The notes: generated by a model from the sequence alone, not told the origin. Shown: positions 13,313 through 19,977, counted from the stretch's first letter. The stretch: 64,000 bases of DNA from an uncultured Acidobacteriota bacterium (GCA_963700145.1 OY969474.1:320001-384000), one strand, 5' to 3'. A program made the numbers and translations.

Positions 13313-13543
13313 GATCCAGTCGGTTCGGCTGTGGATCGATTCGGTTCCGCTGTGGATCCACTCGGTTCTGGCGTGGATCGGTTCGGTTCCGCCGCCGATC
13401 CGCTCGGTTCCGGCGTGGATCGACTCAGTTCGGCCGCGGATCGATTCGGTTCCGCTGCGGATCCACTCGGTTCCGGCCTGGATCGACTCGGTTCGGCCGC
13501 CGATCCACTCGCTTCCGGCGCCGATCGATTCGGTTCGTGCCGC
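13313..13543 (+). repeat. Tandem array of 11 x 21-bp units, consensus GATC(c/g)a(c/t)TCGGTTC(c/g)Gnngng
   Basis: GATC recurs exactly every 21 bp from 13313 to 13523, with no spacers. Confidence 0.95.
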
Positions 13544-13597: not shown

Positions 13598-13984
13598 ATG
13601 GCTATCAACGGAAACTCACTGTCCGAACGTGTCACCCGCTGGCAGGTCGTGGTCGAGAACCTTCGCGAAGGCGAAGGCTTCAGCCACATCGCGGCGGATC
13701 TCCAGCGGCTCGAGGAGCGCATCGCCGAGGCGCGGACCGTCCAGAACCAGCTCGAGGACCTGCGCTCGCAGTTCCGGGCGCAGACCGCGCGGGTCCGCAA
13801 GCTCGCCATCGAGGGCGACTCGCTCCGCGCGCGCATCGGGGCCAGCCTGCGCAGCAAGCACGGCTTCACCAGCGAGGCGCTCATCAAGTACGGCTTCAAG
13901 CCGCTGCGGGTGCCGCGGCGGCGCTCGAAGAAGCCGGAGGCGGGCACGACGCCTCCCACGGTCCAGACCCAAGCCGCGGAGTGA
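13598..13984 (+). CDS. Small coiled-coil hypothetical protein (…HGFTSEALIKYGFKP + basic tail)
   Basis: AAGGAGG RBS, heptad-rich helices, strong GC3 bias. Confidence 0.85.
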   Translation: MAINGNSLSERVTRWQVVVENLREGEGFSHIAADLQRLEERIAEARTVQNQLEDLRSQFRAQTARVRKLAIEGDSLRARIGASLRSKHGFTSEALIKYGFKPLRVPRRRSKKPEAGTTPPTVQTQAAE

Positions 13985-14899: not shown

Positions 14900-16246
14900 C
14901 TAGCCCGCACCTTCCAGCACCTGCCCGGTCAGCATCAGGAGCCCGGCGCGGAAGCCCCCGGCCGGCAGCTCGCGCAGCACCTCGCGCCAGACCTCGGCGA
15001 CGAGCCGGCGGTCGGCGCTGCCCGCCGCGGCCGCGTCGCTCAGCCGACGCAGCGCCGCGCGCACCTTGGGCGGCAGCGCCCGGGCGCGGACGAGCGGTGC
15101 GAGCTTCGGCGCCATCCGCATCAGCTCGCGCCGGCGGCCGCGCCAGATCCAGAGGCTGGCCAGGTGAATGCCGGCGACGGCCGCCGCCTCGGCTGAGCCC
15201 GCGGCGAGCGCCTCCGCGAACGCCGCGGTGAGTCGCCGCTCGGCCTCGTCGGCGCGGCCGGCCAGCGCCGCCGCTTGCGCGGCGGTCACGCCGAGGACGG
15301 CGCGCAGCGCCGGGTCGTCGAGCGCCGCCGGGTCCGCTTGCCCCAGCACCGCCTCGGCCTGGTCGGCGCGGTCGAAGCGGAGGAGGAGTTGCGCGAGCAT
15401 CAGCCGCCCGCGCGTCGCCGCCGCCGGGTCGGCGAGCCGGCTCGACAGCAGGAACGAGCGCGAGAAGAGGCCCACGGCGCGCTCCAAGTCCCCGAGGTCG
15501 GCATAGAGCGTGCCCTGTTCTTCGAGCGCCAGGCTCTGCTGCGCCACCTCGCCGCACTCCTCGAAGAGCGTCACCGCCCGCTGATAGAGCGCCAGCGCTT
15601 CGGGCGCCCGCTTGCCGGCGCGCCGGAAGCCGGCGAGGCGCCGCGCCAGCACCGCGGCCTCGAACGAGTCCTGCTCCTCGAGGAGGTCGGAGGCGGTTCG
15701 GAAGGCGAGCTCGGCGCTCGGGAGCTCGCCGCGCCGATGGAGCGCCTGGCCGACGAGCGTGTAGCCGCCGCTCTGGAGGTCGCGCACGCCGGCGCCCGGC
15801 GGCAGCCGCTGGAGGACGGTCAGCGCGAGCCGCGCCAGCTCCTCGGCGGCGTCGGGCTGCGTGTCGGCGGCCTGGCCGCCGCGCTCGAGGAGCGTCAGGA
15901 CGACGGCGGCCGTGTTGAAGCGCTCCTCGCCGCGGAGCGCGAGCGTCCGCCGCTCCCTCGGCAGCGCCAAAAGCTCGTCGACCAGCGGCCCGGCCGCCGC
16001 CCGCTCGGCGGCGATCGCCGCCGAGCGCGCCTCCCAGCGCCGGGCGAGCCGCGGCCAGGCCCGCTCGAGCTCCGGCGCGCCGGCCGCCGGCGCCACGCCG
16101 GCCGCCGTCTGAGCGAGCTGGCCGGCGATCGGCCGCGCCAGGTTGCGACAGCGCGAGCAGGCGAGGAGGTGGCCGAGGACGCCGGCCTGGCGCTCGGTCA
16201 GCGATGTCACGAACGGCAACAGCTCGCCCTCGCGGAAGTGCTCCAT
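14900..16246 (-). CDS. Cytoplasmic TPR-repeat protein with N-terminal HxxxCxxC (zf-HC2/anti-sigma-like) motif
   Basis: GHLLACSRC followed by TPR-like helices (GQALHRRGELPSAE, QGTLYADLGDLERA). No signal peptide or TM. Confidence 0.8.
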   Translation of the reverse strand: MEHFREGELLPFVTSLTERQAGVLGHLLACSRCRNLARPIAGQLAQTAAGVAPAAGAPELERAWPRLARRWEARSAAIAAERAAAGPLVDELLALPRERRTLALRGEERFNTAAVVLTLLERGGQAADTQPDAAEELARLALTVLQRLPPGAGVRDLQSGGYTLVGQALHRRGELPSAELAFRTASDLLEEQDSFEAAVLARRLAGFRRAGKRAPEALALYQRAVTLFEECGEVAQQSLALEEQGTLYADLGDLERAVGLFSRSFLLSSRLADPAAATRGRLMLAQLLLRFDRADQAEAVLGQADPAALDDPALRAVLGVTAAQAAALAGRADEAERRLTAAFAEALAAGSAEAAAVAGIHLASLWIWRGRRRELMRMAPKLAPLVRARALPPKVRAALRRLSDAAAAGSADRRLVAEVWREVLRELPAGGFRAGLLMLTGQVLEGAG

Positions 16247-16551
16247 CGGCTGTCTCGCTCCCGTCACTGGCTCGGTTGCAGGTGTTTGGCTGGATTTGCT
16301 GCTCTCCAGCCCTTTTCATCAGTGACGCTGACATTTCTAGCATAGTGTTGCTGAAGATGGCAAGTAGATGTTCCTCCGAGACGTTGGGTAGCGCCCAGGA
16401 ACTGGCCCCTGCCGTCCGTTGCTCGCCGCCGCATCCGTCGTCCCAGCGGGGGAGCGGACCGCACTACGCTGGTGGGAAAAGAGACAACCCCGCGAGCGCC
16501 GCAGCCATCCCGGCCGTCCGGCGACCCGCCGGGGAACGAGGAGGCTTTGCG

Positions 16552-16779
16552 ATGTCAGGTCGGAAAATCGTGGCAAGCGTGGGGGCGCTCGCGGTGGCGG
16601 CGTTCCTCGTCCTGGGCACACCGGCGCACGCCATCGGCTCGCGCGCCGGCAACGAGGCGCCGCCGGCCCGGGCCAGCGCCCGGCTGGCGTTGGCCGAGCT
16701 GTTGCGGGACGTTCTCGACTTCGTCGGGCTGCGGGCGGTTTGGGAGAATCAGGGTATAGGGATCGATCCGTACGGCTAG
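16552..16779 (+). CDS. 75-aa secreted peptide precursor ending in ...VWENQGIGIDPYG
   Basis: GAGGAGG RBS, Sec signal (MSGRKIVASVGALAVAAFLVLGTPAHA, AxA site), amphipathic helix, G-x-G-I-D-P-x-G end. Confidence 0.75.
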   Translation: MSGRKIVASVGALAVAAFLVLGTPAHAIGSRAGNEAPPARASARLALAELLRDVLDFVGLRAVWENQGIGIDPYG

Positions 16780-16849
16780 CAACAGGAGCGCAAGCGGTTG
16801 TGGCAGAATACGCCCGCTAATCTGCTGAAACCCGGGAGACTGCCCGAGC

Positions 16850-18187
16850 TTGCGCGACCACCCTACGCACGAGACCCTCGACCGCTTCCTGCGCGGGCAG
16901 CTTCCGGCGATCGAGGGTGCCCGCGTCATTGCCCATCTCGTCCGCGGCTGCCGCTTCTGCCAGGCGGCGGCCGCGGATCTCGCGGGGCCGCTCTTCGAGG
17001 AAGGCGAGCCGGAAGACCTCGGGAGCGACGAGGGCGCGGTCTACGAAGTTGATTTCGACCGCGCTTTCGCCGCGGCGGGCCCCGCCGCCGCCGCCCACGA
17101 ACAGGAGACCCTCCTGGCCGACGAGATCTACGCCGCGCTGGTGGCGGGGGGACACTCCGCCATCCCCGCCTCGCACTTCTGCAGCGCCCCTGTCTGCCGC
17201 GCCCTGATGCGGCGGAGCTGGGAGCTGCGGCACGAAGACCCGACCCAGATGCTGCAGCTAGCCCACCTCGCGGTGTACACCGCGAGCCGGCTCGACCCCG
17301 AGCAGGTGGGAACGGTGCGAGTCGCCGAGCTCAACGCCCGTGCGCTCGGCGAGTACGGGAACGCGCAGCGCATCACCGGCGACTTGAGCGGCGCCGACCG
17401 ATCGGTCGAGCAAGCCCTCGCTCTCTACCGGGGCAACGAGGAGGACCGGCTTCTCGGCGCCCACCTGCTGACCATCAGGGCCGCGCTGTTCGGTGATCAG
17501 CGCCGCTTCTCCGAAGCCCTCGACTTGCTCGAGCAGGTAGAGCAGACCTACGAGGAGTTCGGCGAGCGCCATCAGCAGGGGAGAGCGTTGGTCCAGAGGG
17601 GGCTCTATACCGGCTACCGCGGCGAGGTTGCGGAGGGGGTCCGCCTCCTGCGTAGCGCGCTCGCACTGATCGACGAGACGGTCGACCCGAAGCTGGCCCT
17701 GGTAGCTGTTCACAACCTCGCTTGGTTGCTCTCCGAGTGTGGGCAGCTCCGCGAAGGCCGGATACTGTTGTGGGAGAACAGCGGTCGCTACGACCGACAC
17801 GCGGATCGCGTGATGCTCTTGAAGCGCACCTGGCTTGAGGGGTACAACGCCGCGGGCCTCGGCGACCTGGAGCGTGCCGTCGAACGGCTGAGCGACGCGA
17901 TCCAGGGCTTCGACGAGGCAGAGCTGGGCTATCAGGCCGCGCTCGCCACCCTCGACCTCGGCGCCGTCTGGCTGCGCCAAGGCCGCTCGCACGCGGCGTT
18001 GGAGATCCTCGAATACGCTGCCGAGACCTTCGTCGCCATCGGCGTCGGCCGCGAAGCCCTCGGCGCCTTGGCCCTCCTCCAGCAAGCCTGCGAGCAAGAG
18101 AACGTCACCGTAACCTTCGTCCACGAAGTCTCCGCCTTCCTCCGCCGCCTCGAGCACGACCCGGCCGCCCGCTTCAGGCAGCGGTAG
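16850..18187 (+). CDS. Cytoplasmic TPR-repeat protein with N-terminal H...HxxxxCxxC zinc-finger-like motif
   Basis: DHPTHETLDRF...AHLVRGCRFC and TPR helices (GNAQRITGDLSGA, QRRFSEALDLL, VHNLAWLLSECG). TTG start. Confidence 0.85.
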   Translation: MRDHPTHETLDRFLRGQLPAIEGARVIAHLVRGCRFCQAAAADLAGPLFEEGEPEDLGSDEGAVYEVDFDRAFAAAGPAAAAHEQETLLADEIYAALVAGGHSAIPASHFCSAPVCRALMRRSWELRHEDPTQMLQLAHLAVYTASRLDPEQVGTVRVAELNARALGEYGNAQRITGDLSGADRSVEQALALYRGNEEDRLLGAHLLTIRAALFGDQRRFSEALDLLEQVEQTYEEFGERHQQGRALVQRGLYTGYRGEVAEGVRLLRSALALIDETVDPKLALVAVHNLAWLLSECGQLREGRILLWENSGRYDRHADRVMLLKRTWLEGYNAAGLGDLERAVERLSDAIQGFDEAELGYQAALATLDLGAVWLRQGRSHAALEILEYAAETFVAIGVGREALGALALLQQACEQENVTVTFVHEVSAFLRRLEHDPAARFRQR

Positions 18188-18300
18188 CGCAGCTTCCTTC
18201 TCTAGTACCTCGATAGCTGACCGGCCTCGGCCGCCCTCGATCGCGAACACGAGGTCATCGGGCGCCGCCGCGTGAGGGTGACGCATGCAGCCGGAGCGTG

Positions 18301-18553
18301 CTACGGCGGCCGCTCGGGCGCGCGGACGACTCGCTGGGTGCCGTCTTCGTACAGCGCGCGGACGCTTCCGTCCGGGGATAGCACTTGAAGAGTGCCGCGT
18401 GGCCGGCCCCCTCGCAGCGCAGCCGCACCCCGGACTGGAACTGCCGATGTGACCTGGCACTCCCTGCGCCTGAACCTCGATCCAGTCACGAGGAATTAGA
18501 AGGTCGCCATCGCGTGGGAACTGCAGTGCCCAAAGGGTGGCGTAGATGCTCAT
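18301..18553 (-). pseudogene. Internally deleted remnant of a conserved hypothetical gene
   Basis: The N-terminus MSIYATLWALQFPRDG...WIEVQAQGVPGHIG is joined out of frame to a C-terminus LRGGRPRGTLQVLSPDGSVRALYEDG. Confidence 0.5.
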
Positions 18554-18672: not shown

Positions 18673-19977
18673 TCAACGTTCGAGCTCGCCTAGAACCAGA
18701 TCGATCTCCCAGGGCCGCACAAAGCGAACGGGGACTCCTTCCTCGACGGTGTCGAGCCGCAGAGAGGCGTTGACCACGCCCAGGCAGGCCGGACGGTACG
18801 CTTCGAGAAAGCTATGTGTTCCTCGTGACACCGTCGGACGGGCGAGCTCGGCAGCTTTGACTTCAATTGCCACCATCCGTTTCCCGCGCCGCACCACGAA
18901 GTCGACCTCGGCACCGCCCTTCGAGCGCCAGAAGCGGATTTCGTCCAGCAACTCCAAGCGTTTTGCCAGCTCGTTGAAGATTGCATTCTCCCAGAGAGCG
19001 CCGCGGTCAGCCCTCTCGCTGCTCGCCTTGAAGCCGCCGAAGACCGCGTTGCGCAAGCCGTTGTCGAGGAAAAAGACTTTGGGCGTTCCGGAGATCTCGG
19101 AGCGCTTGCCCCCCGCGAACGGTGGCACCAGCCGGAGCACGAGTGCTTCCTCTGCGATCTCGAGGTAACGCCCAACGGTGTTGCGGGAGGCTTGGGCCAA
19201 GCCTGCCCAGTCGGTGAGATTCACCAGATTGCCGATGTCCGCCGCCGCCAGCTCCAGCAGCTTGCGAAACACCGACGGCCGCTCGATCTGATGGAGATCG
19301 GAGGTGTCCTTGAGGACGAAGGCTTCCACCAGGTGATGCAGTGCCGTCGCAGGATCAGAATCGAACCACGGCTCCGGATAACCGCCCGTGACGACGAGCT
19401 TTTCCCACAGGTCGCGGAGCCGCAGGTCGCGGATCGCGGGCGCCAGCCCCGCGGGAACGAGCGCTGCGACCTCCTGGAGAGAAAAGGGCAAGAGCTCAGT
19501 CCGTCGCGCCCGGCCGGCGAGAGACTCCCGCGTCCGCGCGCTGAATGCGAACGACGAGCTGCCGGTGGCGACGATGCGTCGCGACTTGTCGAGGTCGACA
19601 AGGCCCTTGATGAAGAGCGGCGCCTCCGCAAGGTGCTGGATCTCCTCGCACAGAAAGAGGGTCTCGGGGCTCAGCACCTCGGCCAGGGCATCCAGAGCGA
19701 GAGCGGGGGAGTGGGCGAGCTCGCGGATCCGCGGCTCCTCGGCATGAAGGATGAGGACCGGGGCCTCGACGTGAGTCAAGGCTTCCCGAATCCACGTCGA
19801 CTTTCCAGCCTGCCGCGGCCCCACGACCAGCTCTGCGCGCCCCGGACGCAGCTCGAGCCGGCGATGGCGTGCGATGAACAGTTCCGGCAGTGAGGCAGCG
19901 AGCAAAGCAGCTTGATCCGCCGGCCGGTCAAGCCACGGATTGTGCATACGGAGCGTCGCCAGGAGGGCCGGGTCCAT
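18673..19977 (-). CDS. AAA_14 ATPase with C-terminal DUF4143 (PD-(D/E)xK-like) domain
   Basis: HNPW, GPRQAGKS, EEIQH, TGSS, ESLAGR, GGYP, KVFFLDNG and EVDFV...AIEVK. Confidence 0.92.
   Translation of the reverse strand: MDPALLATLRMHNPWLDRPADQAALLAASLPELFIARHRRLELRPGRAELVVGPRQAGKSTWIREALTHVEAPVLILHAEEPRIRELAHSPALALDALAEVLSPETLFLCEEIQHLAEAPLFIKGLVDLDKSRRIVATGSSSFAFSARTRESLAGRARRTELLPFSLQEVAALVPAGLAPAIRDLRLRDLWEKLVVTGGYPEPWFDSDPATALHHLVEAFVLKDTSDLHQIERPSVFRKLLELAAADIGNLVNLTDWAGLAQASRNTVGRYLEIAEEALVLRLVPPFAGGKRSEISGTPKVFFLDNGLRNAVFGGFKASSERADRGALWENAIFNELAKRLELLDEIRFWRSKGGAEVDFVVRRGKRMVAIEVKAAELARPTVSRGTHSFLEAYRPACLGVVNASLRLDTVEEGVPVRFVRPWEIDLVLGELER

Follow-up and report, generated by a model that had tools for sequence, protein, structure and literature searches.

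A DPxG peptide gene beside a zinc-finger/tetratricopeptide repeat protein gene: a candidate peptide-signalling module in an uncultured Acidobacteriota bacterium

The window analyzed here is a 64,000-nucleotide stretch of DNA from an uncultured Acidobacteriota bacterium (GCA_963700145.1 OY969474.1:320001-384000), whose genome is a single contig of 5.46 Mb with 71.5% G+C. At positions 14900–18187, the gene for a 75-amino-acid peptide precursor lies between the genes for two tetratricopeptide repeat (TPR) proteins with N-terminal zinc fingers, TPR1 and TPR2. An earlier note on this DNA had proposed that the three genes form a signalling module in which an exported peptide is sensed by an intracellular TPR receptor. 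We read the module as probable peptide/TPR-receptor signalling of a known type, with a new output domain and in a new phylum. The in silico results comprise the gene family, its genomic linkage, the fold of the TPR protein, predicted groove binding, covariation and interchangeable output domains. The genes and their parts are as follows.

14900–16267 (−): TPR1, 455 aa, divergent from the peptide gene, zinc finger and TPR.
16552–16779 (+): peptide precursor open reading frame (ORF), ATG start, 75 aa, stop codon at 16777–16779.
16552–16632 (+): signal-type N-terminus, residues 1–27, with a basic n-region, a hydrophobic core and A-H-A.
16633–16746 (+): pro-region, residues 28–65, with an amphipathic helix at about 41–58 by helical hydrophobic moment.
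16747–16779 (+): C-terminal unit NQGIGIDPYG (residues 66–75) and stop codon; proposed ligand, from the predicted complex.
16850–18187 (+): TPR2, TTG start, 445 aa, same strand, 70 nt downstream of the peptide gene.
16850–17149 (+): anti-sigma-like zinc domain of TPR2, residues 1–100, with H4, H29, C34 and C37; three short helices and one long helix.
17162–18187 (+): TPR superhelix of TPR2, residues about 105–440, followed by the stop codon; proposed peptide-binding domain, from an AlphaFold2 model.

The peptide gene is preceded by a GAGGAGG ribosome site at 16538–16544, with a 7-nt spacer to the ATG at 16552. In the 75-aa reading, the precursor is MSGRKIVASVGALAVAAFLVLGTPAHA|IGS...VWENQGIGIDPYG, where the bar marks the inferred cleavage point, which was set by rule without a predictor. 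The Kyte–Doolittle 19-residue maximum was 2.14, at residues 6–24, and the end of the protein, W64-ENQ-GIGIDPYG75, is an exact W-x3-G-I-G-I-D-P-Y-G. Translation and hydropathy bore out the earlier description of this ORF in full (75 aa, ribosome site, Sec-type signal ending in AHA, amphipathic linker and C-terminal motif), and the coordinates agree with a peptide gene co-oriented upstream of TPR2 and divergent from TPR1. Pfam and NCBIfam assigned no family to the peptide; in the ESM Atlas, its nearest clusters were unnamed "hypothetical protein" entries, commonest in Acidobacteriota, with scores of 0.80–0.85, below the counting level.

The length of the 75-aa frame is no evidence for a gene, because long open frames are common at 71.5% G+C, and this is the one point that favors a chance open frame over a gene. 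Such a reading is refuted by conservation, and we give it practically no weight: besides the ribosome site, the peptide has 13 paralogous loci in the genome, matches in 34 of 41 related genomes and 698 public representatives, and its conservation among orthologues is frame-specific. In nine close orthologues (73–89% identity), residues 1–43 were almost invariant. The last decapeptide was hypervariable across the same nine orthologues, reading NQGIGIDPYG, GEGIGIDPYG, DDQGGAVDPFG, NQGVGIDPYG, AEGPAIDPFG, KEGAAIEPFG or SRDAAIDPYG. Constancy of the export and pro-region alongside rapid change in the C-terminal unit is what would be expected of a signal under diversification, not of a structural protein.

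Peptide loci in the genome were collected by a peptide search, from the DNA upstream of TPR2 paralogues, by a motif scan and by a six-frame hidden Markov model scan. Thirteen loci were found, and all of them (13/13) lie directly upstream of a full-length zinc-finger/TPR paralogue. Full-length TPR paralogues number 16, of which 13 have their own peptide gene and three do not, namely TPR1, its decayed copy at 4.2737 Mb and a paralogue at 3645700. The 13 precursors follow a common plan: a signal-type N-terminus, a short linker, an amphipathic helix (often G-W-x5-W), a Gly/Pro-rich linker and the core G/C-x-[ILVM]-D-P-x-G; the G-W-x5-W type helix is the counterpart of the pro-region helix in the window's peptide.

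A profile of the 13 peptides matched 34 of 41 related genomes; within the same family it matched 24/24, with 2–30 matches each, and in other families of the order 9/16. A phylum-wide search gave 0 of 200 other genomes at E ≤ 1e-4 (none from the home family, with 28 candidates scored per genome), a result that bounds the reach of the profile and not the range of the family. Among 1.84 billion public cluster representatives, the profile found 698 at E ≤ 1e-3 and nine at 1e-10. TPR2 homologues are named only "hypothetical" or "TPR repeat protein", and taxon names, where given, are Thermoanaerobaculia or Acidobacteriota metagenome bins.

For the linkage count, the loci of this genome were combined with 51 further loci from 11 relatives, picked solely by peptide match. 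A TPR-family gene was present at most 1067 bp from every one of the 68 peptide ORFs. Fifty-eight ORFs were co-oriented with the TPR gene downstream, three stood in tandem arrays with an intervening sigma gene and seven were convergent; the H-x3/4-C-x2-C motif occurred in 55/68 TPR neighbours. Because linkage was essentially complete, both in this genome (13/13) and over all loci examined (68/68), the statement in the earlier note that DPxG peptides recur beside TPR genes in Thermoanaerobaculia holds, as does the linkage to the TPR family on which its proposal depended.

A second copy of the three-gene module lies at 4271044–4278297 of the genome (L016), with 75%, 50% and 59% protein identity to that of the window, and appears to be decaying. 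Its peptide frame (L016:3613–3843) reads ...GGGVDPYR and continues without a stop codon, whereas ...GGGIDPYGKN is the end of the public homologue P0166; a shift of 1 nt in the final codons accounts for the difference. In the TPR1 copy (4273044–4274384, −), the frame is interrupted by a TGA and the match to the family profile covers positions 9–243 only; the TPR2 copy is intact. Elsewhere, three modules with C-G-[IL]-D-P-N-G peptides are followed by a shorter ORF (3107320–3107988, −; 3386501–3387172, +; 3888977–3889219, +), and these ORFs match only the first half of the profile of zinc-binding anti-sigma (ZAS)–TPR proteins (positions 13–239, or 119–199).

Unit statistics were taken from the best 150 of the 698 public representatives. 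Among these, 147 had a signal-type N-terminus and 149 had at least one [DE]-P-x-G (or DGNG) unit, which shows that the D-P-x-G end seen in the 13 paralogues is a conserved feature of the family, as the earlier note had supposed. One unit was present in 46 precursors, two in 58, three in 39, four in five and five in one; 2–5 units were thus found in 103/150. The unit consensus was [C/S/G]-[G/C/S/T]-I-D-P-N-G, with Cys on both sides in 174 of 304 units. Like the window's peptide, 38/149 precursors end exactly with the unit. In the multi-unit precursors that were printed, a block of about 9–11 residues is repeated, identical or near-identical within each precursor, and its length is approximately that of the stretch of the window's peptide that makes confident contacts in the predicted complex described below.

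TPR1 and TPR2 matched only generic TPR models in Pfam and NCBIfam (TPR_12, TPR_MalT and similar), near or below the cut-off. No membrane segment was predicted in TPR2 or TPR1 (hydropathy maxima 1.30 and 1.34), consistent with the earlier view that both are cytoplasmic. The AlphaFold2 model of TPR2, built from a 48-sequence alignment, was all-helical (predicted local distance difference test (pLDDT) 88.4, predicted template modelling score 0.76), with short helices at 7–14, 20–31 and 35–48, a 40-residue helix at 61–100 and then about eight TPR repeats. A Foldseek search of this model against the Protein Data Bank (PDB) ranked LGN/Pins first (E = 1.7e-7), and Rap appeared from rank 26 (RapJ-PhrC, E = 3.8e-5). 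An independent VIA-align scan of 48,161 chains gave Z scores of 24.8 for Pins, 24.7 for LGN, 21.6 for NprR-NprX, 21.1 for RapI, 20.3 for Rap of phage phi105 with peptide, 20.2 for RapH, 19.8 for Rap of pLS20, 15.6 for PlcR and 15.3 for AimR. The structural comparison with the RRNPP receptors that the earlier note had called for thus returned NprR and Rap as the best bacterial matches, and RRNPP receptors are the closest bacterial folds to the modelled TPR2. A PDB profile match of TPR2 to RapF (E = 1.6e-4, over about 120 TPR positions) was weaker than that to kinesin light chain.

The complex of full-length TPR2 with peptide residues 28–75 was then predicted, each partner with its own unpaired alignment and with three controls. 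The pair scored 0.64 (runs 0.58, 0.64 and 0.67) versus 0.00, 0.00 and 0.01 for the controls; the mark of the tool is reached by 58/80 solved complexes and 2/110 mismatched pairs. The runs shared at least 77% of contacts, with a partner pLDDT of about 50. Confident contacts were restricted to peptide residues 66–75 (NQGIGIDPYG), which lie along helix-A residues of successive repeats on the concave face: TPR2 residues 127–128, 171, 175, 208–209, 212, 216, 245, 248–249, 252, 282, 285–286, 288–289, 292, 322, 325, 328–329, 332, 361–362 and 365–366. From the low-error pairs, the C-terminus of the peptide appears to be directed to the N-terminal repeats. The groove binding that the earlier note had anticipated is therefore predicted for the C-terminal unit of the peptide, at a score far above the best control (0.01).

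Covariation was scored in 47 non-redundant cognate pairs over 295 TPR columns, 24 of which are predicted contacts. The columns covarying most with peptide residue 70, two before the Asp, were 252 (z = 9.4), 292 (5.9) and 127 (4.2), and those covarying most with residue 69, three before the Asp, were 329, 252 and 292. All of these columns are predicted contacts, and the lowest-error pairs of the model for peptide residues 69–70 were TPR2 residues 292, 328, 325, 252 and 329. The earlier note had also suggested this check; its rank tests were modest (given below). Among orthologues, contact residues were more conserved than the rest of the TPR domain (entropy 0.389 vs 0.588, p = 0.047); about half are invariant, and 212, 216, 285, 322 and 332 vary.

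A groove signature of N171, R174, N289, K/R325 and W328 is largely kept in peptide-linked ZAS-TPR paralogues (by eye, uncounted; N171 is sometimes T), and it is partly lost in the peptide-less paralogue at 3645700. TPR1 differs from TPR2 by R127A, N171Q, R174H, N289M, K325V and W328V. Because the signature is lost, TPR1 is probably no receptor for the window's peptide, and a peptide-blind partner or competitor is more likely than a second receptor. Of the two TPR proteins considered in the earlier note, only TPR2 keeps the signature; TPR1 keeps the finger. Orthologues of TPR1 with the same divergent layout occur in two genomes of the genus, G004 (94% identity) and G001 (71%), and by sequence comparison TPR1 belongs to a branch confined to the genus.

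Seven convergent neighbours were examined in the relatives, and six of them proved to be TPR proteins with an XRE-type helix-turn-helix (HTH) domain instead of the zinc finger. Pfam HTH_3 was detected in four of the six (52.4, 46.6, 27.9 and 25.1 bits, cut-off 23); two were below the cut-off, one of these being clipped by the end of the locus. Their TPR domains match the TPR2 family profile at E values from 7e-41 to 1e-65, and they carry the groove signature almost completely (N171 6/6, R/K174 6/6, N289 5/6, R325 6/6, W328 6/6). The convergent DPxG precursor genes are located as follows.

Loci L055, L065, L068, L029 and L076 (genomes G019, G023, G012 and G010): DPxG precursor genes convergent to HTH_3+TPR genes.

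Locus L055 carries a tandem of two peptide/HTH_3+TPR pairs, and both of their precursors contain three units (GC-x-[IL]-DP-x-GGC). The occurrence of the same peptide family and the same groove with either a ZAS or an HTH domain argues that the TPR domain and the peptide form a sensor–ligand module and that the N-terminal domain is its output; this is the strongest comparative argument for the signalling reading. As judged from these sequences, HTH_3+TPR beside a DPxG peptide is the classical RRNPP receptor architecture in Acidobacteriota.

In the zinc-finger proteins, H29, C34 and C37 were invariant in 48 sequences, and an HP motif near residue 4 was frequent. The H..CxxC finger of the earlier note is present in both proteins, as H-x3-C-x2-C (HLLACSRC) in TPR1; its spacing is one residue longer in TPR2, where H-x4-C-x2-C (HLVRGCRFC), also found in most paralogues, replaces the H-x3-C of canonical ZAS domains. 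The PDB entries matched best by a profile of 12 N-terminal domains were two anti-sigma factors, DdvA (E = 0.0013) and ChrR (E = 0.044). Anti-sigma domains have a three-helix bundle plus a fourth helix; in the modelled zinc domain, helices were placed at 7–14, 20–31 and 35–49, with a long one at 69–99. The isolated zinc domain was modelled with a pLDDT of 78, and Foldseek placed ChrR at ranks 1–4 and RslA at ranks 6, 7 and 10, with superpositions of 1.4–2.5 Å root-mean-square deviation over 40–47 columns at E ≥ 0.23; no match reached E ≤ 0.001. Pfam zf-HC2 was found in 0/12 N-terminal domains at E ≤ 1, and one 83-aa fragment gave E = 0.07. These comparisons lend weak support to an anti-sigma-type zinc domain at the N-terminus of TPR2. 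For the earlier label "anti-sigma-like", ChrR, RslA and DdvA rank at the top, but the similarity is weak and no sigma gene lies in the window's module.

In two paralogous operons, the peptide and TPR genes are separated by an extracytoplasmic function (ECF) sigma gene, recognized by Sigma70_r2 (E = 8.7e-9) in one and by translation in the second. The linked sigma family has four members in the genome: three at modules (796772, 799155 and 2755408), one of them divergent from its module, and an orphan at 4071146–4071646 (+), with 46% identity and no ZAS-TPR gene detected nearby. Ten of the 13 modules, including that of the window, have no adjacent sigma gene, and the orphan is a candidate target of such sigma-less modules.

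The closest known layout is that of the RRNPP(A) systems of Bacillota, above all Rap-Phr and NprR-NprX. In those systems a small gene for an exported propeptide adjoins the gene of a TPR receptor located in the cytoplasm, as is predicted here. The active part there, and the putative one here, is a short unit, either C-terminal or repeated internally; a single genome carries many diversified pairs of paralogues, and some receptors have no peptide of their own, like TPR1 and the paralogue at 3645700. RapB, RapD and RapJ are described as such receptors in the accessible text of PMC9765709, which, like that of PMC11343458, also states that RRNPP propeptides can hold several pheromone copies. The best bacterial structural matches were NprR (Z 21.6) and Rap (Z 19.8–21.1), and the HTH_3+TPR sisters in relatives have the PlcR/NprR/Rgg-type architecture. 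By sequence, TPR2 did not fall into the Rap, Rgg, NprR, PlcR, PrgX or AimR families, with only generic TPR models found in Pfam, and neither an HTH nor a Rap three-helix effector domain was found in TPR1 or TPR2, which have a His/Cys/Cys helical domain instead. Unlike in the RRNPP(A) systems, the host is a diderm acidobacterium (Thermoanaerobaculia by homologue names), the units share a D-P-x-G core that is often Cys-flanked, and the pro-region is conserved and amphipathic.

On the output side, class I ZAS anti-sigma factors (ChrR/sigma-E 2Q1Z, RslA/sigma-L 3HUG, RsiW) resemble the zinc-finger proteins, weakly in sequence and fold, in an N-terminal helical domain with invariant His/Cys/Cys. 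In two paralogous operons the gene immediately preceding that of the TPR protein encodes an ECF sigma factor, and a third module has such a gene in divergent orientation; here the sensor is a soluble TPR domain, not a cupin or a membrane/periplasmic domain. DdvA/DdvS of Myxococcus xanthus (8RLZ, 8ROT), as presented in the accessible portion of PMC11506125, likewise joins a ZAS domain to a TPR-containing sensor and gave the best match for the zinc region (E = 0.0013). By the same account DdvA is transmembrane with a TPR-CHAT part, whereas the proteins studied here have no membrane segment and no CHAT domain and have a peptide gene alongside. LGN/Pins (3SF4, 4WNG, 4A1S) resemble the predicted TPR2 complex in an eight-repeat superhelix with an extended peptide in the inner groove; they are eukaryotic polarity proteins that resemble TPR2 in fold and in the way the peptide is predicted to bind, and in nothing more. 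The Rhs "DPxG" boundary motif was considered and rejected as a relative, the likeness being confined to four residues, with no YD repeats here.

We propose the following chain of events. The 75-aa ORF would be a propeptide exported via the Sec pathway, and its C-terminal unit of about ten residues, NQGIGIDPYG, would be released, for which N-terminal trimming alone would suffice in the case of the window's peptide. The re-imported unit would occupy the concave TPR groove of cytoplasmic TPR2, according to RRNPP logic, and its occupation would alter the hold of the ZAS-type zinc domain on an ECF sigma factor. For the window's module this sigma factor would be encoded elsewhere; in three paralogues it adjoins the module. 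We infer export, processing, re-import, the binding and control of sigma and the direction of the switch. The genome has three genes for SBP_bac_5 (Opp/Dpp-type) binding proteins, which we count as import capacity; none of the three is linked to a module. To the chain as a whole we assign an even chance, and our confidence in the binding step, which comes from the predicted complex, is higher.

The 13 private peptide/receptor pairs may converge on the four members of a single ECF sigma family. In a broader and more tentative proposal, which we consider possible but hold at somewhat less than an even chance, the Thermoanaerobaculia would have true peptide-pheromone communication that is unrelated in sequence to RRNPP: D-P-x-G oligopeptides, often disulfide-looped, would be released from exported precursors, taken up again and bound by cytoplasmic TPR receptors, with a ZAS or XRE-type HTH domain as interchangeable output. 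Each genome would have 13 to about 30 private channels feeding into a few ECF sigma factors, in the way that several Rap proteins act on Spo0F and ComA.

Several observations weigh against this account. Most homologous units are embedded and not C-terminal, only 38/149 precursors ending with a unit, so that the proposal has to presuppose processing. The window's module has no linked gene for an importer, a processing protease or a sigma factor, none of the four sigma copies of the linked family lies in the window, and in a diderm host the outer membrane is a further barrier to re-import of the peptide. One SBP_bac_5 gene about 2.7 kb from a module was considered as the importer and rejected, since an aminotransferase gene lies between and the gene looks unrelated. 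The structural match of TPR2 is to a generic TPR superhelix with the eukaryotic LGN/Pins at its top, and a shared fold shows no function. The score of the complex may partly reflect likeness to solved TPR–peptide complexes; the partner pLDDT was only about 50, the alignments were unpaired and the controls did not include a non-cognate paralogue peptide. Rank tests of covariation at contacts versus non-contacts were modest (p = 0.029, 0.13, 0.06, 0.095 and 0.58), the covarying pairs are related to each other, and the statement that the top three columns are contacts is post hoc. Finally, the anti-sigma similarity is weak throughout (zf-HC2 0/12; PDB profile E values of 0.0013–0.044; Foldseek E ≥ 0.23; H-x4-C in TPR2).

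Some of these points suit a different explanation, in which TPR2 senses the precursor in cis before export: it would bind the C-terminus of the unexported precursor, giving secretion-coupled feedback like that of FlgM/sigma-28, without cell–cell signalling. Receptor and newly made precursor share the cytoplasm, nothing beyond the C-terminal unit is required for the predicted binding, this unit already stands at the free end of the window's peptide, and the module has no linked importer or protease. Multi-unit precursors with linkers (103/150), however, suggest proteolytic release, Cys-flanked units (174/304) suggest an oxidized extracytoplasmic form, and 13 diversified pairs with a hypervariable unit fit private channels better than a general secretion monitor; we consider sensing in cis unlikely. 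A lower probability still is given to the peptide being an exported effector (membrane-active or antimicrobial, surface or metal-binding), with the ZAS-TPR protein merely regulating its gene on another cue and the predicted binding an artefact. Many paralogues do have a Trp-rich amphipathic pro-region helix, as membrane-active peptides typically do, a regulator gene is frequently the neighbour of the gene it controls, and a conserved leader and promoter boxes stand upstream of the peptide genes. Yet it is the short DPxG unit, not the helix, that is conserved and repeated, the multi-unit and Cys-flanked precursors speak against an effector as they do against a chance frame, covariation peaks at the predicted groove contacts, the complex controls scored 0.00–0.01, and the groove signature is kept only beside peptide genes, across two output domains.

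A role of the TPR protein in chaperoning or immunity, keeping the precursor export-competent or harmless in the cytoplasm with the zinc finger as a structural element, would account for the predicted binding of TPR2 and the peptide, and TPR proteins commonly chaperone extended C-terminal peptides. The invariant H/C/C motif with its anti-sigma-type similarity, the ECF sigma genes inside three modules and the replacement of the finger by HTH_3 in the sisters make this very unlikely, as both output domains argue for transcriptional control. The multi-core precursors with Cys-flanked cores also resemble those of ribosomally synthesized and post-translationally modified peptides (RiPPs), which would be modified at D-P-x-G or Cys while the TPR protein served for recognition or as a scaffold, and NCBIfam weakly matched the TPR part alone to HaaT, a TPR protein of cyclophane RiPPs (E = 1.8e-6, 26 bits vs a cut-off of 1125). 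Against a RiPP, the conserved set of genes in the examined loci is peptide plus TPR (plus sigma), no modifying enzyme was seen in the few flanks annotated (the window and one paralogous module), and RiPP leaders are not usually signal peptides of the Sec type. We regard this origin as highly improbable, more so than a chaperone.

In the literature searched, which did not extend to supplementary tables, no account came to light that pairs a DPxG peptide with either a ZAS-TPR or an HTH-TPR protein in Acidobacteriota. A peptide-to-sigma link through a soluble zinc anti-sigma domain, as these sequences suggest, may likewise be new, no description of one having been found there. In the accessible text of the RRNPP_detector paper (PMC10075063), the words "acidobacteria" and "sigma" occur 0 times, and the corresponding text of the ECF classification paper (PMC7826278) points out that soluble variants of anti-sigma factors may have escaped detection and contained no soluble TPR anti-sigma group. 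As far as the available parts of PMC10075063 and PMC9765709 go, RRNPP is presented as belonging to Bacillota and their mobile elements, and Gram-negatives are described as small-molecule signallers. If the proposed chain is true, peptide pheromone sensing by TPR receptors would exist in a hard-to-culture diderm soil phylum, a peptide signal would be coupled directly to alternative sigma factors via a soluble anti-sigma, a new form of ECF gating, and output domains (ZAS or HTH) would be exchanged in modular fashion on one sensor–ligand pair. The large, diversifying set of 13 to about 30 pairs in each genome would then suit the study of kin discrimination in soil. Testable reagents are at hand, namely a 10-residue peptide and a 445-aa soluble protein.

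The divergent region between TPR1 and the peptide gene contains conserved blocks, seen in an alignment of four diverged module copies.

16268–16551: divergent intergenic region.
16341–16366: block CATAGTGTTGC(C)-N6/7-GGCAAG with the palindrome TTGC...GCAA, kept in the four diverged module copies.
16461–16466: GCACTA box, a conserved block.
16488–16534: G+C-rich leader, before the ribosome site at 16538–16544.

Related boxes and leaders also occur upstream of paralogous peptide genes, where a [G/A]CACTA box lies about 45–100 nt ahead of the peptide start codons; exact GCACTA was present in 15/62 leaders. Single-sequence folds placed a G+C-rich hairpin just 5′ of the ribosome site in most leaders, often with the tip GCC-AUGG-GGC. 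Leader folding beat shuffles in only 2/10 cases (z = −3.67 and −2.60), and RNAalifold gave 0 consensus pairs for 23 leaders, the alignment being poor. A look for sequencing runs that hold the region listed no RNA data, only soil-metagenome DNA contigs with shares of at most 0.28. A promoter scan of 16200–18400 returned 0 sigma-70-like sites. A terminator scan of the same interval gave one site, no more than in shuffles, on the opposite strand inside the leader, and none between the peptide gene and TPR2.

The neighbours of the window's module are an ATPase gene and ORFs without family assignment. The ATPase (18673–19977, −; AAA_14, E = 5.6e-21, and DUF4143, E = 1.9e-36) is convergent with TPR2 and has no evident link to the module. 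Further upstream, at 13313–13537, lies a tandem array of about ten copies of a 21-bp unit (75–80% matches), with 42-bp and 63-bp super-periods. DPLG repeats in one frame of the array are probably incidental. The consensus of the unit contains GATCGACTCGGTTC, and the array is located upstream of an ORF at 13598–13984.

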